Assembly (NCBI GenBank): GCA_036351155.1
Contig: JAZBOO010000280.1
Coordinates: 6,147 to 70,146, forward strand
DNA from: Candidatus Krumholzibacteriia bacterium
GTDB taxonomy: Bacteria > Krumholzibacteriota > Krumholzibacteriia > LZORAL124-64-63
Direction: 5' to 3'
Length of the DNA: 64,000 nt
The notes beneath the pieces are model-generated. The model was not told where the DNA came from. It saw nothing but the letters and a program-made list of their open reading frames with translations, and searched no databases. Numbering within the stretch: the stretch's first letter is position 1; every line of letters begins with the position of its first letter. This document shows positions 17,683-46,296 of the stretch, in pieces. The position numbers and the translations under genes are program-made.

Positions 17683-17683
17683 C

Positions 17684-18304
17684 ATGATGATCCTGGACCG
17701 AGGGCCCCGGCTGGGCCAGACCCTGGTGCTGACCCTGGGGCTGGCCATGTTCTTGAGTGGGTGTCTTTTTGAACCCCGCGATGACGAACCGCCTTCCCTG
17801 GGTGCCCAGGTCACGTACAACCCGCGGAACAGTCCGCGCAATGTCTGGGAGAACCTGCAAATTTCCCTCCAGAACAACGACAGCTTCGGCTGGGAGGAAA
17901 ATATCAGTCCCGATTTCACCTACGAGCCCGATTCGGAATCTGTGCCCGCGGATAATCCCGGTTTTTTTCAAGGCTGGAACTTCGAGCGAGAAAAGGCATT
18001 CATCAATAACTTCTATACCAGTCCGGTGACTTCTCAGGCCCAGATGCGCAACGACGAATTCATTGTCCCGGAAGCTTCGGGGGTCGAGGTGATCTGGACC
18101 GAGGTCATCTATTTTGTGCGGGTGACCAACACCAATGACAATTCCGAAATCCGGTATCGAGGTTCAGCAAATATCACCTTTAAGCTCGAGGGCAATTTCT
18201 GGTATGTTTACAGGTGGGTGGATCTCATCGGGGAAAATGACCCCGATACTGGTCAGCCATTGCCAACTCTGGGGGTGCTGCGCGGAACATTTGGTAGCAA
18301 TTAA
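17684..18304 (+). CDS. Lipoprotein, unknown function (paralog 1)
   Basis: ATG lies 1 nt after the OMP stop. Signal peptide plus lipobox LSGC. Weak similarity to the downstream lipoprotein. Confidence 0.6.
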   Translation: MMILDRGPRLGQTLVLTLGLAMFLSGCLFEPRDDEPPSLGAQVTYNPRNSPRNVWENLQISLQNNDSFGWEENISPDFTYEPDSESVPADNPGFFQGWNFEREKAFINNFYTSPVTSQAQMRNDEFIVPEASGVEVIWTEVIYFVRVTNTNDNSEIRYRGSANITFKLEGNFWYVYRWVDLIGENDPDTGQPLPTLGVLRGTFGSN

Positions 18305-18434
18305 ACACAGTATATGTTAAATTCATGGGAGAGTATCCCGGTTTTTAACCGCAACATGCCGCGTTTCTGGTTGGGCTTCTCGTTCAAATTCCCTGTCACC
18401 CCAGGGAGGCCCTGGAATTATGGAGGACCGTGAG

Positions 18435-19061
18435 ATGAAAAGGAACTTTCTGTTACTCTTGATGGCCCTGGCCCTGATGGTCGGTCCGGCCGGTTGTATC
18501 TTCTCGCCCGACGATAATACAGGGGATCCCCCTGGAGGGAACACCGACCTGGAGTACCCCAAGGATCCCGATACCCTCATCAAAAATTTCAAGCGCATCT
18601 ACACCGAGATGCGGATTGATGATTTCAAGGCCATGCTCTTCAGCGAGTACAAGACCGTACTTCTGCCCTCGACTCTCGAGGAATGGAACGATGCGGGGAA
18701 CCCCCTGGCCGAGGATGTTTTCTACCGTGAGGACGAGATCAACATCCACCAGAACATGTTCTCCGGGAATACGGGGCTGCGACCGAATGGCGATACGGTT
18801 CCGCCCATCGCTTCCATCCAGGTTGATCTCCTCTCAAAGTTGACGAGCTGGGAGCTCATTCCCGAATCCCATGTCCATTTTTCCGGGCAGGGAGGGTACT
18901 GGGCCCTGTTCCATGTGAATCTTTCCTTCTACCTTCCGGACGGATCCCGATTCCAGGTTCAACAAAATGTGGAGTTCTACGTGGTGCCCACCGACGACAA
19001 CGGACGCACCAAGTGGCTGCTGCTGGGCCAGGTCGGGATCGAGCCCAGTAATGATCCCTAG
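18435..19061 (+). CDS. Lipoprotein, unknown function (paralog 2)
   Basis: GGAGGA lies 7 nt upstream of ATG 18435. Signal peptide plus lipobox GPAGC. Preceded by an AT-richer promoter-like gap (18305-18420). Confidence 0.6.
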   Translation: MKRNFLLLLMALALMVGPAGCIFSPDDNTGDPPGGNTDLEYPKDPDTLIKNFKRIYTEMRIDDFKAMLFSEYKTVLLPSTLEEWNDAGNPLAEDVFYREDEINIHQNMFSGNTGLRPNGDTVPPIASIQVDLLSKLTSWELIPESHVHFSGQGGYWALFHVNLSFYLPDGSRFQVQQNVEFYVVPTDDNGRTKWLLLGQVGIEPSNDP

Positions 19062-23825: not shown

Positions 23826-24752
23826 ATGGAATTCTTCAGGAACCCCAGCATCAACTTTGTTGGCGGCATGAAGGGGGCGTTCACCGTCTCGGCGGTGCTC
23901 GTCGTGCTGAGCCTTCTTTCGCTGCTGATCCACGGCGGTCCGCGGATGAGCATCGATTTCACGGGCGGCTCGGTTTTGCAGGTCAAGATTTCGCCCGTGC
24001 CCGAGGTGGGCGACATTCGCTCCACCCTGGAAAACGCCGGCTACGAGGGTGTGCAGGTGACCGAGTTCGGCTCGCAGGACGAGTTCCTGATCACCTTCGT
24101 GAACCCCGAAAGCACCGAGGAAACCCTCGATGCGGCCCAGGGCCTGCTGGCCGATCTCCGCACGGGCCTGAGCGGTTCGGAAATCGAGCTGCGGCGCGAA
24201 GAGACCGTGGGACCCAAGATCGGCGGCGAGCTGCGCGATGCCGCGGTGAACTCCGTGGTCTCGGCCCTGGCCCTGATCGTGCTGTACATCACCATCAGGT
24301 TCGTGTTCCGCTACGGGATCGCGGCCATCATCGCGTTGATTCACGATGTGTCCTTGACCCTGGGTGTGTTCTCGTTGCTCGACTTCGAGATCAGCCTGCA
24401 GATCATCGCCGCCTTCCTCACCATCATCGGTTACTCGCTGAACGACACCATCGTGGTGTTCGATCGTATTCGCGAGAACATGAGGCTGCGCCGCAAGGAG
24501 AGCTATCGCGAGGTCATCAACCGGTCCATCAACGAGTGCCTGAGCCGGACGGTGCTGACCTCGGTCACCACCTTCTTCGTGTCCGCCATGCTCTACATTT
24601 TCGGCGGCCCGGTGATTCACGATTTTGCCTTCGCGCTGTGCTTCGGCGTGGTCATCGGTACCTACAGCTCGATGTTCATCGCCAGCCCCGTGCTGGTGTG
24701 GTGGTACGAGCGTCGGATCGCCGACAAGAAGCGCATGGCCACCGACATGTAA
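23826..24752 (+). CDS. secF: Protein translocase subunit SecF
   Basis: MEFFRNPSINFVGGMK..., DFTGGS, six TM segments, SecF family. Confidence 0.92.
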   Translation: MEFFRNPSINFVGGMKGAFTVSAVLVVLSLLSLLIHGGPRMSIDFTGGSVLQVKISPVPEVGDIRSTLENAGYEGVQVTEFGSQDEFLITFVNPESTEETLDAAQGLLADLRTGLSGSEIELRREETVGPKIGGELRDAAVNSVVSALALIVLYITIRFVFRYGIAAIIALIHDVSLTLGVFSLLDFEISLQIIAAFLTIIGYSLNDTIVVFDRIRENMRLRRKESYREVINRSINECLSRTVLTSVTTFFVSAMLYIFGGPVIHDFAFALCFGVVIGTYSSMFIASPVLVWWYERRIADKKRMATDM

Positions 24753-24760
24753 CGGCCCCG

Positions 24761-24832
24761 GAACACTGGCCCCAAAACAAGGGATCCGGAATGTCCTCGC
24801 CACTTCGTGGCTGCGGATTTTCCGGATCCCTT
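24761..24832 (+). terminator. Long nested palindromic element after secF: 21-bp stem CCCAAAACAAGGGATCCGGAA / TTCCGGATCCCTTGTTTT(T)GGG, with inner hairpin GCCACttcGTGGC in the loop
   Basis: Seen directly in the sequence, 9 nt after the secF stop. The U-run lies inside the 3' arm. A second related hairpin GCCACttctcgGTGGC sits at 24848-24863. Confidence 0.55.
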
Positions 24833-25105
24833 GTTTTTGGGCCAGTGTTCCGGGGAAGCCACTTCTCGGTGGCCATACTGTCCGCTTACGGGGTATAGAA
24901 GTCTCTTTTCGCGGTCAAATGGTCCGGAGGAGAAGCTGCGGGTACTGAGGGGCTTGGCGGCAAAATCCTTGCTTTCACCTATTTCCTGGCGAAAAATTGA
25001 GGTTTGGGGGTACAATGGGGGAGTGAGGTCCACAGGAAGTCTCCAGGCATGATCCTTGCCCTTTTCCTGGTGAGACATGGACCAATTTTTCTGGAGAGAC
25101 CGGAA

Positions 25106-25606
25106 TTGACCTATTTCAAGAAAACATCCCACCTTCATCAGATCGGCTTCTTCCTGGGGCTGGGGCTGCTGGTGTTCACGTGCGCCATTCCTGCCCTGGG
25201 CAAGATCGACAAGTCGGGGGCTCGCCTATCCGGCGCCGAGCCTGACCTCGTTTTCGAGGCCATTGCCACGGCCTGGGAACTCGGGGACGAGGATGCTCTG
25301 GCCAAGCTGGTGCACGAGAACGGCCTGCGGGTGACCAGCGGCGACTACAACCGTTTCACCGATTACAGCCCCAGTCAGGCATTCTACTATTTCCGCAATC
25401 AGTTTCGCACCTACCCGACGGTGTCCTTCGGCATCGAACGCATGCAAAAGCAGATGTCGGGTCAGGACCGGGTGCATGGTATGGTGAGCTGGCAATACCA
25501 GCGCACCAGGGGTGGGCCGGTGCAGGAACTCAAGCTGGTCCTGGTTTTGACCCGGCAGGGAAGCAACTGGCGGCTGGCGGAGATCAATACCATCAACAAG
25601 AGGTAA
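25106..25606 (+). CDS. Small secreted protein, possibly NTF2/SnoaL-like fold
   Basis: GGAGAG lies 7 nt upstream of TTG 25106. Signal peptide MTYFKKTSHLHQIGFFLGLGLLVFTCAIPALG. About 130-aa mature domain. The fold assignment is an inference only. Confidence 0.5.
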   Translation: MTYFKKTSHLHQIGFFLGLGLLVFTCAIPALGKIDKSGARLSGAEPDLVFEAIATAWELGDEDALAKLVHENGLRVTSGDYNRFTDYSPSQAFYYFRNQFRTYPTVSFGIERMQKQMSGQDRVHGMVSWQYQRTRGGPVQELKLVLVLTRQGSNWRLAEINTINKR

Positions 25607-25609
25607 TTC

Positions 25610-28600
25610 ATGACCTGGTTGGTCAGCCAGGCGGCACGCGCGCTGGGTATTCTCTGTCTGCTGGGGCAGGGATTTCTCGTTTATGCGGGCAGCACGGTGG
25701 GGCCTGAGCCGGGACTGGCTCTGCCCGGGCTGTTTCTGGCCCTGACCATCGTCCAGGCGGTGGTTTTTTCCCTGGAACTGCGAAAAAAGCTGACGAGCCT
25801 GGACGAAGCGGGGCGCCGTGCCCTGTTCCTGCCGAGTGTTTTTCTGACCGTGGCCATCGGAACCATGCTGGCCTGTGGGCTGGTGGTTCTGTCCCGGGGG
25901 ACCGGTGCGGGAGACTCATCCTGGAAAGATCCCGAAAGCTCTTCACCGGTGCTGGCCGAGGCACTGCTGGCCCTGGAACAGTATCCTGCCGCCTCGGCCG
26001 CTCTGCTCGATGGGGTCCGGGTGATGCGCGGCCAGCTGGAGAGCCAGCCCGTCAAGGGCGATTGGTTTCGATTGCTGGCCCCGTGGCCGGAGCAGTGGAG
26101 CCGCTATTTTCCTGCGGCGGATGCCTTGCCTGGCGATTTGCTGGTCCATCGTCGGGGCTCACCTCTGGCCTGGACCGAGGGTGCGGAGCCTCTGCCTCCC
26201 CCGCCTTCCCAGGACGTGCGTGCCCTGCCCGTGGACTTTCTGACCCAGCATGCGGGGACCTGGTACCTGCGCAGCTTCGTGATGCTGTCCTCGGAAACCC
26301 TGCTCGAATGGCAGGTGCCCCTGGAAGGACCTCAGCTGGCCCACCGCTGGCCGGGACTGGAACTGTCCGTGAGATCCCTCAACGAGGGCACTCTGACAGG
26401 GAAGGTGGCCCTGACCGACTCCGATCAGGCACGCCAGCTGGTCGCCCAGATGGAACCCGGCAGTGCCGACCAGGCGGCGAGCAAGGGCCGGGCACGTCTC
26501 ATGATCCTCTTGACCCTGGGGTGGCTGCTGGGGCTGACATCGTGGTTTCACATCCTGGCCGGACACGGAGTCTGGCTGGGCTCTCTCTGGGCGGGACGTG
26601 CGCTGCTGGCGGGCGTGGACTTCTTCCGCTGGTTTCCTCAGGCCTTCCCCGACCTCACCGCCCCGGCTCCTCCCGGCCATCCCATCAGCCTGGTGGGGCC
26701 TGCCTACTTTGCCACCCCCTTTGCCTCGGGGTGGTTCGCCTCCACGGCCGATGCCCTGCTGACCGCCCTGGTGGTGGGTCTGACGGCCTGGGCCCTTCTG
26801 CGCTCACGAGGCCTGGTGGGATGGACCGATGAGCTGGCGCGGGCCGGGAAAACCCGCCCTCTGCTGGGACAGGGTCTGGTGTCGGGGCTGGTGTTTGGAC
26901 TGGTGGGTGCGGGATTGCTCTGGCTCGCCCACCTCTTTGCAAGCCTGGTGGCCGACAATGCCAACCCGCGGCTGATCGGCCAGGGCGTCTCGGTGGGGTT
27001 TCTCTCCTTCTGGGGCCTCCATGTGGTGCTGATGGTGATCCCCTTCAGTCTGGCATCCCTGCTGGTGGGCTGGGCCGGCGACCGACCCTGGCCCGAGCGC
27101 ACCCGACTGGGCGGTTGGCTGGCCGCCGCTGGTTTGGGCGGACTGGTTTCGGGCGCGGTTTTCTTCTTCCTGCCGCGCGACTGGTGGTGGCAACCCGCGC
27201 TGGCCGGTCTGATCACGGCGACCTGGTGGCTGGTGGCTCCTGCCCTGCGTTCGCGCCCCCGCTTCTTGCGGCGGTTTGCCTGGCCCACGGTGATGCTGCT
27301 GGTGGTGGTCTGGAACTACGTGTCCCTGCGAGAAGTGTATGACCAGGCCGAGCGCAGCTGGCTGGTGAGCAAGGGCCACCTCATCACCAGCCCCGGGGAG
27401 GAGGGGACGCGCTTCCTCCTGGAAGATGCCATGCTGGGGATGCGGGAAACGGACCGCCTCAGTCCCTCGACGGGCGAGGGTGTGGGCATCTGGCGGGACC
27501 ATCCGGCCTACCTGCTGTGGGCGTCCTCGCCCTTGCGGGACCTGGGCTATGCCTGCTCGGTGGAGATCATCGACACCGAGTACGGTGCCACCCCGTTTTT
27601 TGCCACCGGGTTCATGCGCGATTCGGGTTATGAACTGCTCAGTCGCGGCAACTGGACCGACCGCGAAGGGGCTCCCGCCACCGACGACGAGCAACTGCAA
27701 TTCCAGACCGAACGCCGGGTCTATCCCGGGGGCGAAGAAGAGGTCCTGGTGGCCCGGATGGGCCGGGCCGGTGATCTGGGCTGGATCCGGGTGGAGTTGC
27801 CGGTGCGCAGCTGGCGGATCTCGACCCTGCTGGCCGACCTGCGCGATGAGGTCCCGGTGGACAGTGGTTACCGGCCCCGGGCGGAAGTGGATCGCCCCAT
27901 TCTTCTCTTGCGGGGGGACAACCAGGGGTGGCTGGGAACGGGAGATCCCGGTCTGAAGGGAGCACAGGCCAGTGGCCTCCTGACCGAGCTGAAGCAGGGA
28001 GTGCGTCCCTGGGCGGCGATCGAGCGAGACGATGGCACCTGGCTGTGTCGCTGGAACCCCCTGCCGGACAATCTGGCCCGGTCCCCGGGAGAAGGCTTCC
28101 TGCTGGGGCTGAGACGCGCGGGCCCGGTGGAAGACCTGCTGGATCTTTCGCGGATCATGCTGATCAATCTGGTGTTGCTGCTGGTCCTGTTTGGCCTGGT
28201 TCAGGGCACGGAGCGACTGCGCCTGGCGTTCCTGCCTGCGGGCGCGAATCGGCCGAACAGCCAGGGGCCCTGGCTGCCCGGGTTTCAGGAGCGGTTTCTG
28301 GCGGGCTATCTCATGCTCGGCCTCCTGTTGCTCCTGGTGGTGGGCATGTCGGTGGACCGGGTGGGTTATCAGCGGGTGCTGACCGAATCCAAGGAAAAAA
28401 CCCTGGATGGGCTGAACCAGGCCATTTCCCAGCTGCGCAGTCTGCTGGCCGAACAGGCCGGAGCCATGGCGGCCAGCGAGTACATCTCGGACCTGCTGGT
28501 GGGCGAAATGGCCGGGCAGCGTCCGGTGGGTCCTCCCAGTCGACGCCAGGCCATGGTCTTTGCGGGTGATGGCACGCTGGTACTGGACGAAACCCTCAGC

Positions 28601-30394
28601 AATCTGACCGATACCGAGGCGCGGGTGCTGCTCACCGCCGGCCGCAGTAACCCCTTGATCGTGATCAGAGATGACCAGCAGATCTACGTGGCCACCGTGA
28701 TTCCGGTGGATCTTTTCGCTCCGGTGGAAGGGGTGGCCGACGAGGACTCGCTGGTGCTGAACCCGGAACCTGGAGAAGGGTTCTTTCTCTACCGCCAGCA
28801 GCTGGATTCCGAGTTTCTGGGCAGCCTGGCCGACCTGGTGCGCGGTCAGGCCACCTTGTATCTGGAGGGGCAGCCCTATCTGGCCAGCCATCCGGGACCC
28901 GTCTTTGCGGGCCGAAAAAATTTGCTGACGGGACCGGATCTGATGGCCTCGTTGCTGGACCATCCCTGGGGTCCGGGGGTCTTTCCCCGTCCGGGGCGCA
29001 CCTTCGCCTTTTCCGGCAGTCAGCCCTTGCCCGTGTTTGCCCGGGACGAGCAAGGACGTCTGGTGCCCCAGCCCATCCCCGGGGTCATGTCCCTGGCCTT
29101 CCCGGATCGGGAGCAACAGTACAACCAGCAACGTCGCGAGACGGTCCTTTTCCTGGCGGGGCTGGCCAATCTCATCTTGCTGACGGCCCTGATGCTGGCC
29201 CTGGTCATGTCCTGGAACCTCTTCCGCCCGTTGCGGGTGCTTCTGACGGCGACCCGCCGTCTGGCCGACGAAGATTTTGATGCGCCTCTGCCTCCGGGCG
29301 GTCGGGATGAGGTGGGTCGACTGGCTCAGGCCTTCGGTTTGATGAGAGGTCAGCTCCGCACCGCCCGCGAAAAACTGGCGGCCCGGGAAAAGTTTCTGGC
29401 CGGTGTGCTGGACCAGGTGACGGTGGGTGTGGCGGTGGTGGACCGGCAGGGGCAGGTGGCAGCGCTGAACCCCGCCGGCCGGCATATCCTGACGGATTTT
29501 CAGCCCGAGATGGAAGAGCAGGCGGCCGTGCGCGGCCTGGTCGAGATTTTCCGGGACATGGCCGCGGGAAAGCCCACCTGGTCCGGTGAAATCCGCAGCG
29601 CCGATGGTCAGCATACCCTGCGGGGCGCCATGGCACCCCTGGATATTGCCGGGGGCGAGTCGGACACCATGCTGGTGTTCGAGGACATCACCGAGTTTCT
29701 GCAGACCAAGAAGATGGCCATCAACGCCGAGCTGGCGCGCCAGGTGGCCCATGAGATCAAGAACCCTCTGACTCCCATCCAGCTGTCGGTTCAGCTGCTG
29801 GACCAGGCCTGGCGAGATCAGCACCCGCGCCTGGATGCCATCGTACCCGAGACCGTGCAGAGGGTGCTGTCGCAGGTGGAACTGTTGCGGACCATCGCCT
29901 CGGAGTTCAGCCTGCTGGGGCAGCCCGGCGAGCTGGATCTAGTGGTTCTGGACCTGGCGCACCTGGTAGGTGAGGTGACCGATGCCTACCAGGGCGCCGG
30001 GGCTGTGGATTCCGATCATTTCCGGGTGGAAGTGGCCGATTGCCCCCACCCGCTGGTCCTGGGGGAACGGGATGCTCTGCGCAAGATCCTGGGTAATCTC
30101 ATGCAGAACAGCCTGGATGCCACGCGGCCCGAGGAGCCTCTGTCGGTGCAGGTGAGCTGGCGCATCCAGGCGGGCCGGCTGACGCTGGTCTGGGTGGACA
30201 ACGGCCAGGGTTTGCTGCCGGAGGTGGCTGATCGGCTGTTTGATCCCTATTTTTCCACCAAGAGCAAGGGCACCGGTCTGGGCCTGGCCATCTGCCGGAA
30301 CCTGGCCGACCGCATGGGAGGATCCATGACTCTGGCCAACCGACAGGATGCGCCGGGGGCCCAGGCCACCTTGACCTTGCCGCGCGCCAAGTGA
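25610..30394 (+). CDS. Giant (1594 aa) polytopic sensor histidine kinase: about 9-10 TM segments and large periplasmic regions, then HAMP-PAS-HisKA-HATPase (NtrY-like core)
   Basis: C-terminus has HEIKNPLTPIQLSVQLL (H-box), LGNLMQNSLDA (N-box) and GTGLGLAICRNLADRMGG (G2-box). A HAMP/PAS segment precedes it. Many hydrophobic helices in the first 560 aa and one more near residue 850. Confidence 0.85.
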   Translation: MTWLVSQAARALGILCLLGQGFLVYAGSTVGPEPGLALPGLFLALTIVQAVVFSLELRKKLTSLDEAGRRALFLPSVFLTVAIGTMLACGLVVLSRGTGAGDSSWKDPESSSPVLAEALLALEQYPAASAALLDGVRVMRGQLESQPVKGDWFRLLAPWPEQWSRYFPAADALPGDLLVHRRGSPLAWTEGAEPLPPPPSQDVRALPVDFLTQHAGTWYLRSFVMLSSETLLEWQVPLEGPQLAHRWPGLELSVRSLNEGTLTGKVALTDSDQARQLVAQMEPGSADQAASKGRARLMILLTLGWLLGLTSWFHILAGHGVWLGSLWAGRALLAGVDFFRWFPQAFPDLTAPAPPGHPISLVGPAYFATPFASGWFASTADALLTALVVGLTAWALLRSRGLVGWTDELARAGKTRPLLGQGLVSGLVFGLVGAGLLWLAHLFASLVADNANPRLIGQGVSVGFLSFWGLHVVLMVIPFSLASLLVGWAGDRPWPERTRLGGWLAAAGLGGLVSGAVFFFLPRDWWWQPALAGLITATWWLVAPALRSRPRFLRRFAWPTVMLLVVVWNYVSLREVYDQAERSWLVSKGHLITSPGEEGTRFLLEDAMLGMRETDRLSPSTGEGVGIWRDHPAYLLWASSPLRDLGYACSVEIIDTEYGATPFFATGFMRDSGYELLSRGNWTDREGAPATDDEQLQFQTERRVYPGGEEEVLVARMGRAGDLGWIRVELPVRSWRISTLLADLRDEVPVDSGYRPRAEVDRPILLLRGDNQGWLGTGDPGLKGAQASGLLTELKQGVRPWAAIERDDGTWLCRWNPLPDNLARSPGEGFLLGLRRAGPVEDLLDLSRIMLINLVLLLVLFGLVQGTERLRLAFLPAGANRPNSQGPWLPGFQERFLAGYLMLGLLLLLVVGMSVDRVGYQRVLTESKEKTLDGLNQAISQLRSLLAEQAGAMAASEYISDLLVGEMAGQRPVGPPSRRQAMVFAGDGTLVLDETLSNLTDTEARVLLTAGRSNPLIVIRDDQQIYVATVIPVDLFAPVEGVADEDSLVLNPEPGEGFFLYRQQLDSEFLGSLADLVRGQATLYLEGQPYLASHPGPVFAGRKNLLTGPDLMASLLDHPWGPGVFPRPGRTFAFSGSQPLPVFARDEQGRLVPQPIPGVMSLAFPDREQQYNQQRRETVLFLAGLANLILLTALMLALVMSWNLFRPLRVLLTATRRLADEDFDAPLPPGGRDEVGRLAQAFGLMRGQLRTAREKLAAREKFLAGVLDQVTVGVAVVDRQGQVAALNPAGRHILTDFQPEMEEQAAVRGLVEIFRDMAAGKPTWSGEIRSADGQHTLRGAMAPLDIAGGESDTMLVFEDITEFLQTKKMAINAELARQVAHEIKNPLTPIQLSVQLLDQAWRDQHPRLDAIVPETVQRVLSQVELLRTIASEFSLLGQPGELDLVVLDLAHLVGEVTDAYQGAGAVDSDHFRVEVADCPHPLVLGERDALRKILGNLMQNSLDATRPEEPLSVQVSWRIQAGRLTLVWVDNGQGLLPEVADRLFDPYFSTKSKGTGLGLAICRNLADRMGGSMTLANRQDAPGAQATLTLPRAK

Positions 30395-30446
30395 GCAGCC
30401 CCCGAGAGCATCCGGAAGGACGCCCATGACTTCGCACCTCAGGATC

Positions 30447-31127
30447 ATGACACGTGGCCGGCAGGTTTTCTCCCTGCTGGTCGTCCTGTTGATGGCCGGA
30501 GGCGGGGCAGTGCTGGCGCGTCAGTCCGACCAGGCCGAGGTGCGCATCGCCCGCCTGCATTACGATGGGGGCGGCGACTGGTACTGCGACCCGAGCAGTC
30601 TGCCCAACTGGCTGGAACAGTTCAGCCGACGTACGGGCATTGCCACGGCGGCCACCGAGGCGGTGGTTACCCTGGATAGCGAGGATCTGTATCAGTATCC
30701 CTTCCTCTACCTGAGTGGACACGGCCGCATTGATCTGAAGCAGGAAGATCTGAGCGAGCTGCGCCGGTATCTCGAGGCCGGCGGGTTTCTCTACGCCGAC
30801 GACAACTACGGGCTGGACCCCTCGTTCCGTCAGATGATCGCGCAGCTGTTTCCCGAGCGGGAGCTGGCACCCATCGGAGCCGATCATCCCATTTTCCGAG
30901 CCTTCTATCGGTTGCCGGGGGTGCCCAAGATCCATCAGCACGATGGGGAACCTGCCCAGGCTTTCGGCGTATCCCATGAGGGCCGTCTGGTGGTGTTCTG
31001 CACCTGGAGCGCGGACATCGGCGATGGACTGGAGGACGCGGACGTCCACGGCGATCCCCCGCATGTGCGGGAGGCGGCCACCCAGATGGCGGTCAACGTG
31101 TTGATGTATGCCCTGACTCATCCGTAA
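30447..31127 (+). CDS. DUF4159-like secreted protein (class I glutamine amidotransferase-like fold)
   Basis: Signal peptide, RLHYDGGGDWYCD and FLYLSGHG...GGFLYADDNYG blocks that I recall as the DUF4159 family. Family assignment is from memory, not a search. Confidence 0.55.
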   Translation: MTRGRQVFSLLVVLLMAGGGAVLARQSDQAEVRIARLHYDGGGDWYCDPSSLPNWLEQFSRRTGIATAATEAVVTLDSEDLYQYPFLYLSGHGRIDLKQEDLSELRRYLEAGGFLYADDNYGLDPSFRQMIAQLFPERELAPIGADHPIFRAFYRLPGVPKIHQHDGEPAQAFGVSHEGRLVVFCTWSADIGDGLEDADVHGDPPHVREAATQMAVNVLMYALTHP

Positions 31128-31135
31128 CAGAAAAA

Positions 31136-34100
31136 ATGGCACCCATGGATATCCGGCAGACATTCCAGGATCAGTTGTACAGCCTGCTGGGGCGCACCCG
31201 CCGGCGCATCCTGGTGCTGGGCCTGCTGCGGGTGCTGGCGGTTGCCGGGCCCATGACGGTGCTGGCGGTCTGGTCGCTGGGCACCGGTCCCGAGCCGGGC
31301 CCCGTACTGGCGGGCGGTCTGGTGTTTTCCCTGCTGGCTGCCTGGGTGGCTCTGGTCTGGACGCAGGTGGTTTGTCCCCTGTGGCGGTTGCGCCGCCCCG
31401 TGGATCTGGTGGACAGGGTCGAGAAGTTCGGCGACTTTGCCAATGTCCTGGTGGCGGGAGAGGAAGCCCTGCGGCAGCCGGAGCGCTGGGAGGCGGACAC
31501 CTCGGTGCGCCGCGAATTGCGAGACCGGGTGTTCCGGCAGGGTTTGCGCATCCTGGGTTTCTTGAGCCCCGAACGGGTTTTTCCGCACCGTCATCTGCGC
31601 GCTGGCCTGGTGGGCCTGGGCTTGCTGGGGACCGGCGTGCTGTTCATTGGCCTGGCCCAGCCGACCGTGGGCCGTCAGGGAATAGCGCGTCTGCTCCGCC
31701 CCATCCCGCCGGCGGCGGTGCCCCAGGTGGCGGGCATCTATCCCTGGGACACTCCTGACCATGTGGTGGCCGGCGAGGAAGTCCGGCTTTCCGTGCGGGA
31801 TTTCGGAGGCGGAAACGATCTGGCCGTCTGTGAGATCCGGGTGGGACAGGGCCTGTGGCAACCGCTGGAAGCCAGATCCGAAACCGTTCCCCGGGACCAG
31901 GCCTTCCTGCCGCCCCCCTTCAAGCTGTGGATGTCCCAGGTGGACAACGTGCGCGAGGATTTTTCCTGGCGTTTTCGGCGCGGGTCTCGGGTTTCTCCCG
32001 AGCAACGCGTCACGGTGCGGCACCATCCATTGCTGACCAACCTGGGCGTGACCATTCAGCCCCCCGAGTACACCGGTCTGGATGAGCAGGCCCTCGATCG
32101 GTTGCCCACCTGGCTGGAAGTTCCCACCGGTGCGGGCCTGGTCTTGCAGGGGACGGCGAATCACCCGCTGAGCGTGGCCGAGCTGGTGATCTCGGGGCAA
32201 GATGCCCAGGCCCTGGCCATCTCCGGTTCACGGGTGGAGGGCGCGCTGCGTATCGAGGATTCCCTGACCTTCCAGCTGGCCCTGCAGGACAGTTTCGGGC
32301 TGACCAATCTCTCCCCTCTGGTTTACGAAGTGCGGGCCATCCCCGATGAAAAGCCCCTGGTCCAGCTGGTGCGCCCAGGCGACGATGGGCTGCTGCCGCT
32401 GGATGGGATCCTGCCCCTGGGTCTGGATGCCACCGACGACTACGGACTGACCCGCCTGGAACTGCAGCTGCGCGTGGTGGATGGGCCCGAAGAAGGGGAA
32501 GGTGATACCGGCTGGACCATGGGAACCCACCGCATCTGGCAGGGGACGGGGCCTGCCGGCGGATCCTTCACGACAGCCTGGGGCACGGTGCGCCTGGACG
32601 CCCGGATGGCGGAAAATGACGGAGCCCCCCTGCGGGTGGAGATGCAGGTCGATGCGGATATCGCCGACCTGGATCTGGTGCCGGGCGATGTTCTGGAACT
32701 CAGGCTGGGTGCAGTGGACAACCGCCGTCCCGGCTCCGGGCAGATTTCCTACAGCCGGGCGCTACGGCTGGTTTTGCCCTCGGCGGCCGATGTCCTGGCC
32801 AATCAGGCGGAAGCCAATGAACAGCGGCGCGACGAGCTGGAGGAGGCGCGCCGGCGCGGGCTGGAACTGGGCCAGGATCTGGACCGTTTGAATCGCGAGC
32901 TCATGAAGAATCCTCTGCCCGACTGGGCGCGCCGCCAGGAGATGGAAGAGGCCATTGCCCGTCAGCAGCGTCTGCAGGAAGAGCTGTCCCGTCTGGCTGC
33001 CGAGTTGACCAGTGATCTGGATCGTATGGCGTCAGGGCAGATGACCAGCGAGCGGATGCTGGAAAAGGCCGAGGAAGTATCCTCCCTTCTGAACCAGGAT
33101 CCCGACCAGAGCTTGCAGGATCTTCTGGAGCGCATGAAACAGAGTGGCGAGGAGGCGGCTGCCGAGGAGATGGTCCGGGCCATCCGCGAGGTGGGGCAGG
33201 ACCAGAAGGACATGGCGCGGCGCCTGGATGCGGCTCTGGCCATGCTGAACCGCATGGAGCGGGAACAGGAGATGGAGGGCCTGACCGCCCTGCTGGAGCA
33301 GATGATCCGCAAGCAGCAGGAACTGGCCGATCTGAGCCGGGAACTGGCGGATCAGCAGGAGCAACAGGCGGGCGAAGGTCAGGACCAGGAGGCGGCCGGT
33401 GATCCGGACGCCGAATCGGGGGAACCGCAAGAAGGTGATCCGCAGCAAGGTGAACAGCAGGAAGGCGAACAGCAACCGGGAGACCAGCAACCGGGAGACC
33501 AGCAACCGGGAGACCAGCAACCGGGAGACCAGCAGTCCGGCGAACAGCAGGAAGGATCTCCCGAGGACACTCCCACCGCCGAGGAACTGGCCAGACGCCA
33601 GGAGGCCCTGGCCGAGGAGCTGGAGGAGCTGGAGGAAAGGCTGGAAAAAGCCCTGGCCGAATTGCAGGAGCAACAGCAACAGGACAACGGTCAGCAGTCG
33701 CCCGACAGCGAGAAGATGGAGCAGGCCCTGCAGGAAGCCCTGGAACAGCTGGAAAGCCAGAAGGAAAAGGGAGGCATGAAGAAGGCCTCCGAGCAGCTGT
33801 CCCAGATGGATCCCGAACAGGCGGCCAAGCTGCAGCAGGAAAGTCTGCGTGATCTGGGAGCGCTGTACCACGTGATCCTGGAAACGCAGCAGGCCATGCA
33901 GTCGGCCATGCAGCAAAATCAGGTGTCGTCCCTGCGGGGACTGGCCGCCGACATGCTGGCCCTTTCCACGCGCCAGGAGGAGATCTCCCTGGCCATCCCC
34001 TCGCAGCTGCGCGATGTGCGGTCCCTGGGACTGACCCGCAGTCAGCACCGACTGCAGCGGTCGGCCACCGGTGTGCGCGATCGCTTGAGCCTTCTGCTGG

Positions 34101-34924
34101 AAGAGTCTCCGGCCCGGATCATGCGCCTGCTGGCCAAGCTGGACGAGCTGATCGAGCAAATGGGGCACACCGTGCAGTCCATGGAGGACAACCGCGGCCC
34201 CGTGGCGCGGCGCGACGCGCTGGCCAGTCTGGCGTCGGCCAACCGGATCGTGATCGGGCTGTTGACCGAAGCGCAGATCACCAGTCAGAGCAGCAGCCCC
34301 GGCAGCAACGGGCAGCAGCAGAGCATGGCCCAGCAGCTGCAGCAGATGGCTCAGGAACAGGCCAAGCTCAACGGAATGACCGATCAGTTGCGGCAGATGC
34401 TGGCCAACCGCGGCATGAGCCAGGAAGCCCGCTCGCAGATGAAACGCCTGGGTGAGGCCCAGGGCAATCTGGCCGGACAGCTGCAGGAGCTGGAGGAGAA
34501 AGAACGGGAGAATGCCGAAGGTGAGCGCCTGCTGGGCGACCTGGGCGAGCTGGGTCGTCAGATGGAAAGCATCAGCGGGGAGATGGACGACGGCCTGGTC
34601 AGCGAGGAAACGCTGGTGAGGCAAGAGCGCATCCTGAGCCGGCTGCTGGATGCGCGCAACTCGGTGCGACGGCGGGACTACACCAGCCGCCGGGAAAGCC
34701 GGACCGCCGGTCAACTCTACACGGACATGCAAGGCCCGCTGGATGGCGATGACCCGGCCGCAGCAGAGCGCAGCTTCCGCCTGCGTTACCAGGCCCTGGA
34801 AAAGGCGCCGCTTGAATACCGTGATCTGGTGCGGCGCTACTTTGCGGCCCTGGACAGCTTGCGAGCCATGGATGGAGCAGATCTCTGGCCCGACCAGGCA
34901 GATCAGCGAAAGGAACTGCCATGA
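31136..34924 (+). CDS. Large (1262 aa) N-terminal double-TM envelope protein with beta-rich ectodomain, long coiled coils and an acidic Q/E/P/G/D repeat region (DUF4175-like)
   Basis: Two TM helices at residues 25-75, then about 350 aa of beta-rich sequence, then about 750 aa that are heptad-like and rich in E/Q/R/L/A. Contains (QPGDQ)4. Family assignment is tentative. Confidence 0.7.
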   Translation: MAPMDIRQTFQDQLYSLLGRTRRRILVLGLLRVLAVAGPMTVLAVWSLGTGPEPGPVLAGGLVFSLLAAWVALVWTQVVCPLWRLRRPVDLVDRVEKFGDFANVLVAGEEALRQPERWEADTSVRRELRDRVFRQGLRILGFLSPERVFPHRHLRAGLVGLGLLGTGVLFIGLAQPTVGRQGIARLLRPIPPAAVPQVAGIYPWDTPDHVVAGEEVRLSVRDFGGGNDLAVCEIRVGQGLWQPLEARSETVPRDQAFLPPPFKLWMSQVDNVREDFSWRFRRGSRVSPEQRVTVRHHPLLTNLGVTIQPPEYTGLDEQALDRLPTWLEVPTGAGLVLQGTANHPLSVAELVISGQDAQALAISGSRVEGALRIEDSLTFQLALQDSFGLTNLSPLVYEVRAIPDEKPLVQLVRPGDDGLLPLDGILPLGLDATDDYGLTRLELQLRVVDGPEEGEGDTGWTMGTHRIWQGTGPAGGSFTTAWGTVRLDARMAENDGAPLRVEMQVDADIADLDLVPGDVLELRLGAVDNRRPGSGQISYSRALRLVLPSAADVLANQAEANEQRRDELEEARRRGLELGQDLDRLNRELMKNPLPDWARRQEMEEAIARQQRLQEELSRLAAELTSDLDRMASGQMTSERMLEKAEEVSSLLNQDPDQSLQDLLERMKQSGEEAAAEEMVRAIREVGQDQKDMARRLDAALAMLNRMEREQEMEGLTALLEQMIRKQQELADLSRELADQQEQQAGEGQDQEAAGDPDAESGEPQEGDPQQGEQQEGEQQPGDQQPGDQQPGDQQPGDQQSGEQQEGSPEDTPTAEELARRQEALAEELEELEERLEKALAELQEQQQQDNGQQSPDSEKMEQALQEALEQLESQKEKGGMKKASEQLSQMDPEQAAKLQQESLRDLGALYHVILETQQAMQSAMQQNQVSSLRGLAADMLALSTRQEEISLAIPSQLRDVRSLGLTRSQHRLQRSATGVRDRLSLLLEESPARIMRLLAKLDELIEQMGHTVQSMEDNRGPVARRDALASLASANRIVIGLLTEAQITSQSSSPGSNGQQQSMAQQLQQMAQEQAKLNGMTDQLRQMLANRGMSQEARSQMKRLGEAQGNLAGQLQELEEKERENAEGERLLGDLGELGRQMESISGEMDDGLVSEETLVRQERILSRLLDARNSVRRRDYTSRRESRTAGQLYTDMQGPLDGDDPAAAERSFRLRYQALEKAPLEYRDLVRRYFAALDSLRAMDGADLWPDQADQRKELP
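33473..33532 (+). repeat. Perfect tandem repeat 4 x 15 bp (CAACCGGGAGACCAG), flanked by degenerate copies, inside the CDS; encodes (QPGDQ)n
   Basis: Read directly from the sequence. The flanks GAACAGCAGGAAGGCGAACAG and CAGTCCGGCGAACAG are diverged units. Confidence 0.9.
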
Positions 34925-36867
34925 GCAAGAGCCTGCTGATCATTCTTGTCCTGGGTGCCGTCATCCTGGGGGCATCACCCGCACCGGCGCAGGAGCAACA
35001 GGGGCCCCGTCTGGTCCCACCGCGAGCGCAGCGGGGTGTGGTGCAGTCCGGACAGCAGCTGGCGGATCTGCGTCGCCGCGTCCTGGAGCTCGACCGCCTG
35101 ATCGGGCTGGGCAGTGTGGCCCGAGCCGAATCGCTGCTGGAAGACCTTGCGCAACACAGTCTGCTGAAGGACGAGCTGGTCAGCCGCCGCATCAAGCTGG
35201 CGCAGCTCCGCGACGACCATCGCCAGGCGGTGGATCTGAGCCGGGAGGCGGTCATCTCCCAGCCGCTGAATGCGGCCCTCTGGCGTTCGTTGACCAGCTC
35301 ACTGCTGGCGGTGGCCGAGCCCGACAGTGCCCGCGAGGCGGCCGGCATGTTCATCGCCACCAGCCCCAATGCCCGCAGTGCCGGAATGGTGGCGGTGGAA
35401 CTGTTCCAGATGGCGCAGCGGCCCCGGGTCAGCCTGGGGTTGATCGACTCGCTGCGGATCTCGCTGGCCGAGCCCCGGTATCTGGGCCGTCAGCGGGCGG
35501 TGTGCCTGCTGCAGCTGGGCGAACCCGAGGAGTCGGCCGATGAGGTGGTGGCCGAGCTCAGGTACAACCCCTTCAACATTTCCCTGCTGCGCACCGATTT
35601 GCTGGAAGAGGCCTACCAGCCGGGAAGGCACCAGGATTTTCTGGACCGCTTGAAGAATCGCGCTGCGGAATCCGGGAGCCGGACGGCCGAGTCGGTTCTG
35701 CTGGCCAACCTGTACCTGGCCGATGGACAGGCGGAGCCGGCCCTGGAGGCCATCGCCTCAAGCTTTGACACGCGCAGCTCCCAGATCACCGTGCTGCAGA
35801 ACGGGGTGTCCCTGTCCCAGGAGCTGGAACTGCTGGAAGATCCCAGGCAGCGGCACGCCACGGTGGAGTACCTGCTGGACACCATGGCCCGTATGTGTGG
35901 CCCGGTGAATCCCGATCAGGGCCTGCGTCTGCGGGCGGCCGACCATCTGGCCCGGGTCTGTGAACAGGGGCTGGAAATGGGGGCGCTGGGGGGCGATCCA
36001 CGACAGGCCGTGGAGCGCTACGGCGAGTATCTGCAGCTGGTCCGGAAGGTGCACCCGGCCAGTCAGTATCTGTACTCCTCGCAGATCAAGCTGGCCGCCT
36101 ACACCCGTGATGAACTGCGCAAGCCCCGCCAGGCAGCGGGACGGCTGGAACGCATGCTCATGGATCTGGATCTGCCCACCGAGGGCGTGGCGCTGGTGCG
36201 CCTGACTCTGGGCGAGTGCTACCTGGCCGCCGGGGACACCGCGCGCGGGCGTACGGTGCTGACCCAGCTGGGGCGCGACCCCGAGTTCCGTGAAGCGGCG
36301 GGCCATGCTCATTTCCACCTGGCCCGGCTGGACCTGGCCGAGGGCCATTTCGCCACGGCCCGCGATCGTTTCGCCGTGGCGGCCATGGACAATCCCGCCG
36401 CCCCCTACGCCAACGATTCCCTGGAGCTGGGGCTGGCCATTGCCGAGGAGATGGACAATCCTTCCGGCGGCCCGGCCATCCTTCAGCTTTACGGGCAAAG
36501 CGTCTATTTCGATCTGACGCGCCGGCCGGAAGACCATCTGGCTGCACTGGAACATTTCGTGGCCCAGGCCGATCTGCGACTGGATCCTGACGACAAGCAG
36601 CACCTGCTGGAACGAGGGCGCAGGGAACTGGCCGAGGCCTACCAGGAGGCCGGGCGCTTGGAGGACGCGCTGGCCCAGTGGAACGCCATCGTTTTGAATC
36701 ACCCCGATGGGCGGCACCCCGCCCTGGCCCTGCTTTCTCGTGCCCAGCTGTTCGCCAGGACCGGGCGCCCCGAAGAATCCCGACAGGCCATGGAGCAGCT
36801 GCTGGCCCAGTACCCCGACTACCTGTTCGTCGAGGATGTGCGCGACGAGCTGAGGAATTTGCCATGA
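34921..36867 (+). CDS. Secreted TPR-repeat protein
   Basis: Signal peptide MSKSLLIILVLGAVILGASPAPAQ, then repeated amphipathic helix pairs rich in A/L/R/E with an all-helical TPR-like periodicity. ATGA overlap with the upstream stop. Confidence 0.7.
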   Translation: MSKSLLIILVLGAVILGASPAPAQEQQGPRLVPPRAQRGVVQSGQQLADLRRRVLELDRLIGLGSVARAESLLEDLAQHSLLKDELVSRRIKLAQLRDDHRQAVDLSREAVISQPLNAALWRSLTSSLLAVAEPDSAREAAGMFIATSPNARSAGMVAVELFQMAQRPRVSLGLIDSLRISLAEPRYLGRQRAVCLLQLGEPEESADEVVAELRYNPFNISLLRTDLLEEAYQPGRHQDFLDRLKNRAAESGSRTAESVLLANLYLADGQAEPALEAIASSFDTRSSQITVLQNGVSLSQELELLEDPRQRHATVEYLLDTMARMCGPVNPDQGLRLRAADHLARVCEQGLEMGALGGDPRQAVERYGEYLQLVRKVHPASQYLYSSQIKLAAYTRDELRKPRQAAGRLERMLMDLDLPTEGVALVRLTLGECYLAAGDTARGRTVLTQLGRDPEFREAAGHAHFHLARLDLAEGHFATARDRFAVAAMDNPAAPYANDSLELGLAIAEEMDNPSGGPAILQLYGQSVYFDLTRRPEDHLAALEHFVAQADLRLDPDDKQHLLERGRRELAEAYQEAGRLEDALAQWNAIVLNHPDGRHPALALLSRAQLFARTGRPEESRQAMEQLLAQYPDYLFVEDVRDELRNLP

Positions 36868-38135
36868 CCCGATTGCGATGGACCTTGCTGATTGCCGTGT
36901 TGTTGACCCTGGGCGGGTCGGGCGCAGCCCGGGCCCAGAGGTACCTGCTGGTGCCCATGGACCTGACCCAGAACAACCACCTGCGGGCGTACGGGCACGC
37001 CTTCCACACACTGCAGGCGGGGGACAAGGTCAACTGGCTGTTGAACTATCGCGGGGGCAGTTTTTTGATGGACGACACCCAGCGCGCCCGTCTCGATGCC
37101 CGCCTGCTGGGGGTGCGCTTCGAGGAGGTGGGCGAGGCGGATGTGGCCGCTATCCGGCAAATCGTCCAGCAGGAAAACATGGACGAGGTGCTGCTGGAAA
37201 CGCCGCCCCGCATTGCCGTGTACAGTCCGCCCAGCAAGCAACCCTGGGACGATGCGGTGACCCTGGCCCTGACCTATGCCGAGGTGCCCTACGATGTGAT
37301 CTACGACGAGGACATCATGGCCGGCCGCCTGGGTGACTACGACTGGCTGCACCTGCACCACGAGGATTTTTCGGGGCAGTACGGGAAGTTCTATGCCAGC
37401 TTCGGCTACGAGCCCTGGTACCTGGAACAGAAGCACCAGAGCGAGGAGATGGCGACCCGTCTGGGCTTCGACACGGTGTGGGAGCTGAAGCACGCGGTGG
37501 CCCAGACCATCCAGCAGTACGTGGACCAGGGCGGGTTCCTGTTCGCCATGTGCTCGGCCACCGACACCATCGAAATTGCTCTGGCCTGGCTGCACACCGA
37601 CATCGTGTCCGAACCCTTCGACAACACGCCCTATGACCTGGATTATCGCCGCAAGGTGGACTTCGAACAGACGTTCGGCCTGACCGATTTCAAGCTCGTG
37701 ACCAATCCGATGATGTATGAATTTTCGGATATCGACTCGAGCAACTACGCCCAGATGCGCGGCGCCGAGGCCGACTACTTCACCCTGTTCGCCTTTGCCG
37801 CCAAGTACGACCCGGTGCCGGCCATGCTTACCCAGAACCACGTCAACGTGATCAACGGATTTCTGGGACAAACCACCGGGTACTTCAAGAAGCACCTGAA
37901 GCGCTCGGTGATCGTTCTGGCTGCGGTGGAGGGCACGGACGAGGTCAAGTATATCCATGGCAAGCGGGGCATGGGCACCTGGACCTTTCTGGGCGGGCAC
38001 GACCCCGAAGATTACCAGCACCGGGTGGGTGATCCCCCCACCGATCTGGACCTGTATCCCACCAGCCCGGGATACCGTCTGATCCTCAACAATGTCCTTT
38101 TCCCGGCCGCCAAGAAGAAGCCGCAGAAGACTTGA
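36864..38135 (+). CDS. Secreted class I glutamine amidotransferase-like (ThuA/DUF4159-related) protein
   Basis: ATG overlaps the TPR gene stop (ATGA). Signal peptide MTRLRWTLLIAVLLTLGGSGAARA. DYDWLHLHHEDFSG...GGFLFAMCSATD resembles the GATase1-like core also seen in the 30447 protein. The ORF-track start at 36678 is an upstream artefact. Confidence 0.55.
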   Translation: MTRLRWTLLIAVLLTLGGSGAARAQRYLLVPMDLTQNNHLRAYGHAFHTLQAGDKVNWLLNYRGGSFLMDDTQRARLDARLLGVRFEEVGEADVAAIRQIVQQENMDEVLLETPPRIAVYSPPSKQPWDDAVTLALTYAEVPYDVIYDEDIMAGRLGDYDWLHLHHEDFSGQYGKFYASFGYEPWYLEQKHQSEEMATRLGFDTVWELKHAVAQTIQQYVDQGGFLFAMCSATDTIEIALAWLHTDIVSEPFDNTPYDLDYRRKVDFEQTFGLTDFKLVTNPMMYEFSDIDSSNYAQMRGAEADYFTLFAFAAKYDPVPAMLTQNHVNVINGFLGQTTGYFKKHLKRSVIVLAAVEGTDEVKYIHGKRGMGTWTFLGGHDPEDYQHRVGDPPTDLDLYPTSPGYRLILNNVLFPAAKKKPQKT

Positions 38136-38277
38136 TATTGTTGCCCGAGTTGGCCTTCTGGACATCGAGGATCAGTTTTCCTTGCTAACCTCTTGTAATC
38201 TGATAGGATTTACGGGTGATCCCATTCCGGATGGGACTGACCTGCCCCCTGAACAGGACGATCAAAGAGGAGGAAGC

Positions 38278-38463
38278 ATGGAGTACCCGAGTTGCAAGAA
38301 GTGCCAGGACGGGGTGCTGTTGCCTCTGAGTGATTACGGCCGTGATGGAGCGCCCATCCGCTTCAAGGCCTGGGTGTGCCACAACCCCGATTGCGGTTTC
38401 AGCATCCGCATCGACAACGGGGAAATCAGCCACGGCAAGGAATTGCGCCCCTCGGTGAAATAG
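38278..38463 (+). CDS. 61-aa zinc-ribbon mini-protein (CxxC...CxxxxC)
   Basis: Strong RBS GAGGAGGAAG precedes ATG 38278. MEYPSCKKCQDG...WVCHNPDCGF gives four Cys in two pairs. Confidence 0.6.
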   Translation: MEYPSCKKCQDGVLLPLSDYGRDGAPIRFKAWVCHNPDCGFSIRIDNGEISHGKELRPSVK

Positions 38464-38495
38464 GTCCGATCACCCGAAGCAGGAAGAATGATGGA

Positions 38496-46285: not shown

Positions 46286-46296
46286 AAGAGGTTGTC

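Follow-up and report, generated by a model that had tools for sequence, protein, structure and literature searches.

The window analyzed here is a stretch of 64,000 nucleotides (nt) from a Candidatus Krumholzibacteriia bacterium (assembly GCA_036351155.1, contig JAZBOO010000280.1, positions 6,147 to 70,146 of the forward strand), and its subject is a gene for a giant sensor histidine kinase, together with the genes beside it. The gene order is secD, secF, a 354-nt gap, a small gene, the kinase gene, and then genes for a DUF4159 protein, a DUF4175-like membrane protein, a tetratricopeptide repeat (TPR) protein and a secreted protein termed p420, followed by a zinc-ribbon open reading frame (ORF) and, on the opposite strand, an Rce1-like gene. 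From the small gene through p420 the intergenic gaps are -4 to +31 nt. The features of the locus are listed in Table 1, where TM stands for transmembrane helix, P1 to P3 for the predicted periplasmic domains and AF2 for AlphaFold2.

Table 1. Features of the kinase locus; positions are counted from the first nucleotide of the window and residues refer to the kinase
Feature	Position	Strand	Basis or remark
Long hairpin across the secF stop codon	24735..24876	+	Arms 24735-24796 and 24815-24876
Predicted sigma-54 (-24/-12) promoter, aGGCATG-ATCC-TTGCc	25045..25060	+	About 60 nt 5' of the small gene
Small, predicted secreted NTF2-like (DUF4783-family) protein, 166 residues	25106..25606	+	Start revised to TTG 25106
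Giant sensor histidine kinase, 1594 residues	25610..30394	+	ATG 25610 to stop 30394
Predicted TM1-TM3 (8-26, 37-55, 77-95)	25631..25894	+	Averaged hydropathy, basic 56-76 loop, AF2
P1, first predicted periplasmic alpha/beta domain (96-296)	25895..26497	+	AF2 secondary structure
Predicted eight-helix TM core (297-574)	26498..27331	+	Loops 340-378 and 450-457 predicted to face the periplasm, conserved
P2, second predicted periplasmic domain (575-848), tandem PDC/Cache-like fold	27332..28153	+	
Predicted TM12 (849-867), basic cytoplasmic loop and TM13 (897-915)	28154..28354	+	Hydropathy, AF2
P3, third predicted periplasmic domain (916-1178), most probably dCache-like	28355..29143	+	Joined directly to TM14 and HAMP
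Predicted TM14 (1179-1197)	29144..29200	+	Hydropathy, AF2; leads into HAMP
NtrY-type transmitter	29207..30388	+	Pfam, NCBIfam, motif positions, NtrY alignment
DUF4159 protein, 233 residues, N-terminal signal or anchor	30426..31127	+	Pfam E 4e-59
DUF4175-like giant membrane protein, 1262 residues	31136..34924	+	
Exported TPR protein, 648 residues	34921..36867	+	Pfam TPR, signal peptide; start overlaps previous stop by 4 nt
Secreted p420, 423 residues	36864..38135	+	Signal peptide
Four-cysteine (CxxC...CxxxxC) zinc-ribbon ORF, 61 residues	38278..38463	+	Closes the cluster; operon membership uncertain

The kinase ORF is real and intact. Its GC content at the three codon positions (0.72/0.48/0.79) is gene-like, AAGAGG stands just 5' of the ATG, and the stop codon of the upstream gene lies 3 nt before it. 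Using residues 1-1180 as the query, we retrieved 68 proteins, about 50 of which are full length (1530-1650 residues) and 31-54% identical. The full-length homologues come from independent assemblies, some on closed contigs of 3.8 and 4.7 Mb, and those that are named belong to Candidatus Krumholzibacteriota. A scan of one genome per GTDB species returned 53 kinase loci, all from Krumholzibacteriota-type metagenome-assembled genomes (MAGs). The shorter database entries (727-1063 residues) lie mostly on contigs of 3-4 kb. In an exhaustive search of 1.84 billion cluster representatives, a profile of the N-terminal region found 104 proteins at E<=0.001; the distant relatives among these (1250-1690 residues) match profile positions ~370-690, corresponding to the TM core and the start of P2, and are likewise HAMP-(PAS)-HisKA-HATPase kinases. 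Database records describe the homologues only as 'ATP-binding protein' or 'HAMP domain-containing protein', and JGI labels several relatives NtrY. A 1252-residue kinase of Flavisolibacter nicotianae (P0179) was considered as a cultured relative and rejected: it shares the C-terminus alone, and its N-terminus is unrelated. Many MAGs titled 'uncultured Fibrobacteraceae bacterium' (loci L028, L029, L031, L033, L036, L037, L039 and others) carry the Krumholzibacteriota-type locus with full synteny; these titles are probably placeholders or wrong taxonomy.

By its domains and catalytic boxes the protein is assigned to the HisKA-type (class I) sensor histidine kinases. Pfam places HAMP at residues 1200-1250, HisKA at 1373-1435 (PF00512, 31.9 bits against a cut-off of 26.9) and HATPase_c at 1486-1593 (PF02518, 73.3 bits); a PAS_4 match at 1267-1363 is sub-threshold in the window kinase (19 bits) and above threshold in relatives. 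The predicted phospho-accepting H1381 lies within AHEIKNPLTPI, and none of the H, N, G1, F and G2 boxes is missing (NLMQNSLDA at 1496, DNGQG at 1530, FDPYFSTK at 1544 and GTGLGL at 1554). In two full-length family alignments, at least 90% of the sequences retain the H-box residues. NCBIfam models, AtoS, WalK and ZraS among them, match the transmitter only and score far under their equivalog cut-offs. In a BLASTP alignment, the last 405 residues, from the last TM helix to the C-terminus, are collinear with a canonical NtrY (P0184) that carries the NtrY_N domain (29% identity, E 1e-32). The domain matches, the motifs and this alignment together bear out the original prediction, made before any database search, of a C-terminal HAMP-PAS-HisKA-HATPase module resembling NtrY, and by sequence the core appears catalytically complete.

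The region preceding the transmitter is more elaborate than had been thought. Hydropathy was calculated from the window sequence alone and as an average over 53 aligned homologues, and the two agree. In the AF2 model the N-terminal helices span residues 2-29, 39-63 and 66-96. Lys and Arg are enriched in every predicted cytoplasmic loop, so that the positive-inside rule is obeyed throughout; the N-terminus is therefore predicted to be inside and P1, P2 and P3 outside. Where about nine TM helices and two large non-hydrophobic regions had been proposed, hydropathy and AF2 predict 13-14 helices and three extramembrane regions, and the protein is strongly polytopic. The region formerly given as '560-1090' corresponds to P2 plus P3, divided by the helices at 849-867 and 897-915, and extends to residue 1178. 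The helix count is stated as 13-14 because a TM4/TM5 hairpin, required by hydropathy, the basic N-terminus, the basic 56-76 loop and the basic loop of relatives (GKKSGRK in P0148), conflicts with an AF2 helix covering residues 285-336.

Conservation is uneven along this region. P1 is the least conserved part of the kinase (0.28-0.48), with a WxG motif around W188 kept in distant clades, where P1 comes after a classical N-in signal anchor. The TM core has two characteristic loop motifs, SLxDPAYFATPFAxGWFAS (340-378) and NANPRLIG (450-457). When the clades are aligned with one another, four residues (R330, G374, A633 and F664) never vary, seven more (P364, F367, A368, T385, W637, C649 and S662) are retained by at least 90% of the sequences, and the loop motif [FL]DPxYFA[ST]xFGxG...DLLLT persists.

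The AF2 models, built from the 53-sequence alignment, predict the sensor as one compact unit. The mean predicted local distance difference test (pLDDT) score is 87.1 and the predicted template modeling (pTM) score 0.83 for residues 1-1200; the corresponding values for residues 285-880 are 89.0 and 0.87. The modeled sensor contains the PDC fold, in which a long N-terminal helix leads into a five-stranded antiparallel sheet flanked by helices. A Foldseek search of the PDB with the 1-1200 model returned dCache sensor domains at probability ~1.0 (TlpC, Mlp24, LuxQ, TlpQ, CtaA and McpH), and in this model the stronger of these matches must derive from P3 or P1. By its modeled structure P2 is Cache/PDC-like, and P3, in which the order of secondary structure elements is that of a textbook dCache domain, most probably so. 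P1, modeled as a long helix followed by eight strands, is probably of a similar kind. At the level of sequence, Pfam gave no match for residues 1-297, 291-577, 571-850 or 911-1180 at E<=10, the Cache-clan models (dCache_1/2/3 and sCache) included, and the N-terminal alignment, run as a profile against PDB sequences, yielded a single chance match. Internal duplication of P1, P2 and P3 was considered and rejected, as hhalign found no mutual similarity and its lone match was an overlap built into the test pieces.

Known receptors resemble parts of this architecture. The dCache/tandem-PDC receptors (LuxQ, KinD, DctB, Mlp24, TlpC and Tlp3) have one such domain between two TM helices, whereas the window kinase is predicted to have up to three extracytoplasmic domains with TM segments between them and lacks a Pfam Cache match. 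With RetS/LadS (7TMR-DISM), MASE1, 5TMR-LytS and CbrA/CrbS it shares the arrangement of many TM helices and an extracytoplasmic domain before a kinase, but the Pfam models of these modules do not match it. For 7TMR-DISM, MASE, 5TMR-LytS and an SSS-transporter fusion we found neither a Pfam match nor fold similarity to a solved member. The eight-helix core carries conserved loop motifs of its own, unlike known polytopic modules, and a structure search against the PDB found no solved analogue of it.

The small gene 5' of the kinase was not flagged in the original prediction. Its TTG start is preceded at 7 nt by the ribosome-binding site GGAGAG and opens a signal-peptide-like N-terminus, MTYFKKTSHLHQIGFFLGLGLLVFTCAIPALG. 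The alternative start, ATG 25050, was rejected because it falls inside the sigma-54 promoter; TTG 25106 gives an orthologue-like length. The small protein and its orthologues have sub-threshold matches to Pfam DUF4440, SnoaL and DUF4783, all of them NTF2-like families. Genes annotated DUF4783 precede the 1,290-residue kinases, and hhalign aligned the small protein set with these DUF4783 proteins at a probability of 97.6% (E 4.8e-12). By tblastn the small gene is found 5' of the kinase in 47 of 60 loci, and gene calls add four more clades in which a small gene stands upstream; in three of these it matches DUF4783 weakly. A small NTF2-like gene is the partner of the kinase in every clade with a readable upstream gene.

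Upstream of the small gene, at a suitable distance, lies a sequence with the -24 GG and -12 GC elements of a sigma-54 promoter (TGGCAC-N5-TTGCW); in the window the site is aGGCATGATCCTTGCc at 25046-25059. Of 46 loci, 39 have the pattern TGGCA[CT]G-N4-TTGC at 33-172 nt 5' of the small-gene orthologue; its background frequency is 0.043 per 410 nt, and the minus-strand control gave 1/46. Bases beyond the search pattern are also conserved (T at -1 in 40/42 sites and G at +5 in 34/42). The strict motif has 36 sites in ~1.04 Mb searched on both strands (~2 Mb of strand); 34 of the 36 are at the promoter position, none is on the opposite strand, and no second promoter is present downstream. The motif also precedes the small gene-kinase pairs of the distant loci L007, L064 and L065, in the latter two at -98 and -171 relative to DUF4783. 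A weaker second match lies at 24958-24973 of the window. Scanning 24600-38700 for sigma-70 promoters and terminators gave no more sites than in shuffled sequence, and Rfam and tRNA scans of the window found nothing.

Upstream of the promoter, across the secF stop codon, there is a hairpin with 62-nt arms that are 85% complementary, an 18-nt loop and no T-tract, which occurs once in the window. Its calculated folding energy is -110.9 kcal/mol (z = -13.5 against shuffles). It probably bounds or insulates the kinase operon on its 5' side, towards secDF; as an element it may be a terminator, an insulator or a determinant of RNA stability.

Sigma-54 motifs are present elsewhere in the window as well. 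A canonical promoter, TGGCATG-TCCT-TTGCC (42949-42964), lies 70 nt 5' of a signaling cluster at 43033-49801 that consists of REC-GGDEF (43033-44031), HisKA-HATPase-HD (44006-46285), a stand-alone REC (~46297-46683), HisKA-HATPase-GAF-HD (46693-49347) and a second stand-alone REC (~49430-49801). A near-perfect motif, TGGCACTGAACTTGCC, is found at 14690-14705 in the 3' end of tatD, just 5' of the ksgA (RrnaAD) ORF.

No regulator gene accompanies the kinase. We searched with a hidden Markov model of the REC domain, for which three REC ORFs in the window served as positive control, and with GAFTGA and Walker-A motifs. A response regulator or sigma-54 activator neither adjoins the kinase nor is paired with it anywhere in the 64-kb window, and in 59 of 60 distinct related loci there is no REC domain within 10 kb, the exception being an opposite-strand ORF in L030. 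For the window this agrees with the original prediction. Kinases such as NtrB, NtrY, AtoS, ZraS and PilS, which pair with NtrC-family regulators, typically have the AHEI[KR]NPL H-box, and sigma-54 promoters strictly require NtrC-family activators. The promoter and the H-box therefore predict an unlinked NtrC-type regulator that would activate the kinase's own operon.

The genes 3' of the kinase encode envelope proteins and no NtrX-like regulator, again as predicted. The DUF4159 protein is homologous to an uncharacterized structure, 4i66. The DUF4175-like protein begins with three TM helices and ends in a long, acidic tail that is coiled-coil or of low complexity; within this Glu/Gln-rich tail an acidic tandem repeat, (QQPGD)x4, is encoded at 33470-33535, coinciding with a strong positive AT skew at 32-34 kb. 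For p420 we found no Pfam, NCBIfam or PDB sequence match. Its conservation far exceeds that of the neighboring proteins, with 74-89% identity among its best 120 matches, compared with 31-54% for the kinase. Its homologues number over 8000, and in some NCBI records it is called 'asparagine synthetase B', apparently a propagated misnomer. The zinc-ribbon ORF has no Pfam match and shares 69-85% identity with the ORFs that occupy its place in distant clades (L001, L003, L007 and L063). A Bat/MoxR-vWA aerotolerance cluster was considered as an identity for this region and rejected: MoxR AAA+, DUF58 and vWA (BatA/BatB) proteins are absent from the large ORFs of the window and from the called genes of related loci.

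The original prediction asked whether kinase orthologues are always followed by these genes. By tblastn, DUF4159 starts within 1 kb 3' of the kinase on the same strand in 48 of 50 Krumholzibacteriota loci, with DUF4175-like, TPR and p420 genes next wherever the contig extends, and this holds in clades at 20-24% identity. The association is not universal: in one clade two opposite-strand genes stand between the kinase and DUF4159, and in a deeper clade with kinases of 1,250-1,300 residues the order is PyrR-PyrB-PyrC-DUF4783-kinase-Cu-oxidase_4-GlmS (GlmS where the contig extends). The kinases of the deeper clade have one N-terminal TM helix, P1, the core, P2, two TM helices and a short P3 of the sCache_3_3 type, whose Pfam match is confined to this clade, and no PAS domain. 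Two of its loci show the arrangement in full: in L064 (7489-14579) and L065 (7401-14554), pyrR-pyrB-pyrC precede the DUF4783-kinase pair, which is followed by Cu-oxidase_4 (PgeF/YfiH-like) and glmS. The DUF4159 cluster is thus not an obligatory partner of the kinase.

We favor, with roughly even confidence, the reading that the protein is an NtrY/AtoS/ZraS-type two-component kinase with a sensor enlarged into a membrane assembly of 1,180 residues, and that it is under NtrC/sigma-54 autoregulation and responds to an envelope-linked signal. P3, between TM13 and TM14, would feed the HAMP, PAS and DHp/CA core in the ordinary way, and the N-terminal 880 residues (P1, the eight-helix core and P2) would be a co-sensor within the same chain and bias P3 and TM14. 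The small NTF2-like protein, made from the same transcript, would be a periplasmic accessory comparable to ZraP, CpxP, LuxP or YycH/I. The phosphorylation target of the kinase would be a response regulator of the NtrC family, an enhancer-binding protein whose gene lies elsewhere in the genome; this regulator, with sigma-54, would turn on the operon promoter, giving positive autoregulation of the kinase and the accessory protein and, in Krumholzibacteriota, of the four exported proteins (DUF4159, DUF4175-like, TPR and p420). The likeliest input would be a state of the membrane or periplasm linked to the envelope neighbors. Envelope state is our best guess at the signal, based on the neighbors: exported proteins in one lineage and PgeF-like and GlmS genes in the other. 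The original suggestion that the kinase monitors the envelope structure encoded downstream is plausible and partly supported: the tight linkage (48 of 50 loci, and gaps of -4 to +31 nt in the window) speaks for it, but the kinase also occurs without the cluster.

By its logic, not by homology, the closest functional analogue is ZraP-ZraS-ZraR/CpxP-CpxA. There the accessory proteins ZraP, CpxP and Spy are helical, whereas the small protein of the window appears NTF2-like (DUF4783, DUF4440, SnoaL) and falls outside their family, and the window kinase has a polytopic three-domain sensor in place of one small periplasmic domain and no adjacent regulator. WalK-YycH/YycI and LuxQ-LuxP are likewise kinases controlled by separate extracytoplasmic partner proteins. 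Compared with these, most of the accessory mass here would be fused in cis, as the N-terminal 880 residues, and the separate partner has an NTF2-like fold.

Several observations weigh against the reading we favor. AF2 draws residues 285-336 as one continuous helix, in conflict with the TM4/TM5 hairpin that a periplasmic P1 needs, its models are monomeric whereas the kinase must function as a dimer, and a Cache/PDC-like fold is no more than probable for P1. The window promoter has A, not T, at -1; seven of the 46 loci lack the motif under the search pattern, and a search for activator sites in the 220 nt 5' of 42 promoters found no enriched dyad or k-mer. The DUF4159 cluster is absent beside the kinases of 1,250-1,300 residues and therefore cannot be the ancestral signal source. 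Gene order is broadly conserved in the phylum, secDF and housekeeping genes included, so synteny alone is weak evidence of function. Finally, no regulator, enhancer-binding protein or rpoN is seen in the window or in the 10-kb flanks of the related loci, and the output arm is therefore entirely inferred.

Among the alternatives, the one that survives best, though we consider it unlikely, is a multi-ligand chemical sensor unrelated to its neighbors, whose Cache domains bind nutrients or metabolites and whose position reflects inherited gene order. Cache/PDC folds are classic small-molecule binders, the whole neighborhood, with secDF, ksgA, tatD, HAD and YjeF among its genes, is syntenic across the phylum, and both the loss of the DUF4159 cluster in the deeper clade and the unrelated genes inserted in another fit such a sensor. 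The close spacing and the single conserved sigma-54 promoter with none downstream argue instead for co-transcription. Nor is there a Pfam Cache match or a recognized ligand-binding motif, and a chemical sensor would leave the conserved eight-helix core and the NTF2-like partner unexplained.

Slightly less probable still is a trigger transporter or membrane enzyme, in which the eight-helix core would form a lipid-handling module or carrier with a new fold, its substrate occupancy being sensed by the kinase, in a manner comparable to CbrA and CrbS, which are kinases fused to transporters. It is this core that distant relatives match (profile ~370-690), and it has no solved structural analogue. 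Across all clades R330 and G374 do not vary and at least 90% of sequences retain P364 and F367, in non-helical segments beside TM helices, and an N-x-N loop is conserved in the Krumholzibacteriota clade. The continuous helix 285-336 and the Pro-rich extended segment could be re-entrant or membrane-traversing. The internal repeat symmetry usual in carriers, however, is not seen. At a similarly low level of confidence, the N-terminal 880 residues and the DUF4783-family protein would form an undescribed membrane machine, whose state is read by the fused kinase and which controls an uncharacterized envelope-building system of the FCB (Fibrobacteres-Chlorobi-Bacteroidetes) group; such a machine might be a lipid- or glycan-handling receptor or carrier of new fold. 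If this were true, the envelope-building system would be DUF4159, DUF4175-like, TPR and p420 in one lineage and the PgeF-like/GlmS neighborhood in the other.

It is very improbable that the kinase is the phylum's NtrY orthologue, a nitrogen or redox sensor with a lineage-specific N-terminal extension. The likeness to NtrY (KEGG K13598) is confined to the transmitter: the last TM helix, HAMP, PAS, HisKA and HATPase are collinear, the H-box HEIKNPLTPIQLS is identical, the predicted partner is of the same class, an NtrC-family regulator, and JGI calls several relatives NtrY. NtrY itself, however, has ~750 residues and a 4-TM NtrY_N sensor (PF19312) and normally stands beside ntrX, whereas the window kinase has a 1,180-residue sensor with 13-14 predicted TM helices and three predicted periplasmic domains. 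NtrY_N, present in the canonical NtrYs examined, has no match in the whole kinase, nor in its sub-regions at E<=10. Neither ntrX nor ntrBC is nearby, the PAS domain is sub-threshold in the window kinase, and the neighbors are exported envelope proteins, with no nitrogen-metabolism genes. The kinase is not an NtrY orthologue, because NtrY_N is absent and no ntrX is adjacent. The weakest alternative, an assembly or frameshift artefact joining a polytopic membrane protein to an ordinary kinase, was raised in the original prediction and could appeal to the few short database entries and to the normal-looking kinase that residue 897 to the C-terminus would make alone (TM, periplasmic domain, TM, HAMP and kinase core), but it is refuted by about 50 independent full-length homologues of the same length, closed contigs included, by the 53 genome loci, by the small contigs that yield most of the short entries, and by the packing of both halves together in the AF2 model.

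Other genes of the window were noted in passing. Three consecutive genes at 15322-19061 (786, 206 and 213 residues) have no Pfam or NCBIfam match, and unannotated genes of similar size occupy the matching position, between ksgA and a YibQ-like deacetylase, in L003, L005 and L063. At 51966-55172 a protein of 1068 residues combines a papain-like C1 peptidase, a right-handed beta-helix and an FlgD-Ig domain. The C-terminal sorting domain of type IX secretion also matches it, though weakly and below threshold; should this match be genuine, the protein is probably a protease secreted by the type IX system.

Histidine kinases are a known kind of protein; the sensor architecture, the partner and the promoter logic described here are not, and literature searches on DUF4159, DUF4175, DUF4783 and Krumholzibacteriota kinases returned no relevant work. 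The usual sensor kinase has a single extracytoplasmic domain, flanked by two membrane helices. Three predicted extracytoplasmic domains, two of them Cache-like by structure search, with 13-14 helices and an unmatched eight-helix core, would represent an unusual integration of multiple inputs, and the kinase illustrates how accessory sensing proteins may become fused in cis. The family is tiny (104 of 1.84 billion representatives), and the kinase is present in all 53 Krumholzibacteriota species genomes returned, suggesting a core function in a phylum without a cultured member. With the sigma-54 promoter and the NTF2-like partner, the 'orphan' kinase becomes part of a system that makes definite predictions, namely an unlinked NtrC-type regulator, autoregulation and a periplasmic co-sensor, and that would provide the first functional handle on four widespread families of no known function, DUF4783, DUF4159, DUF4175 and p420.

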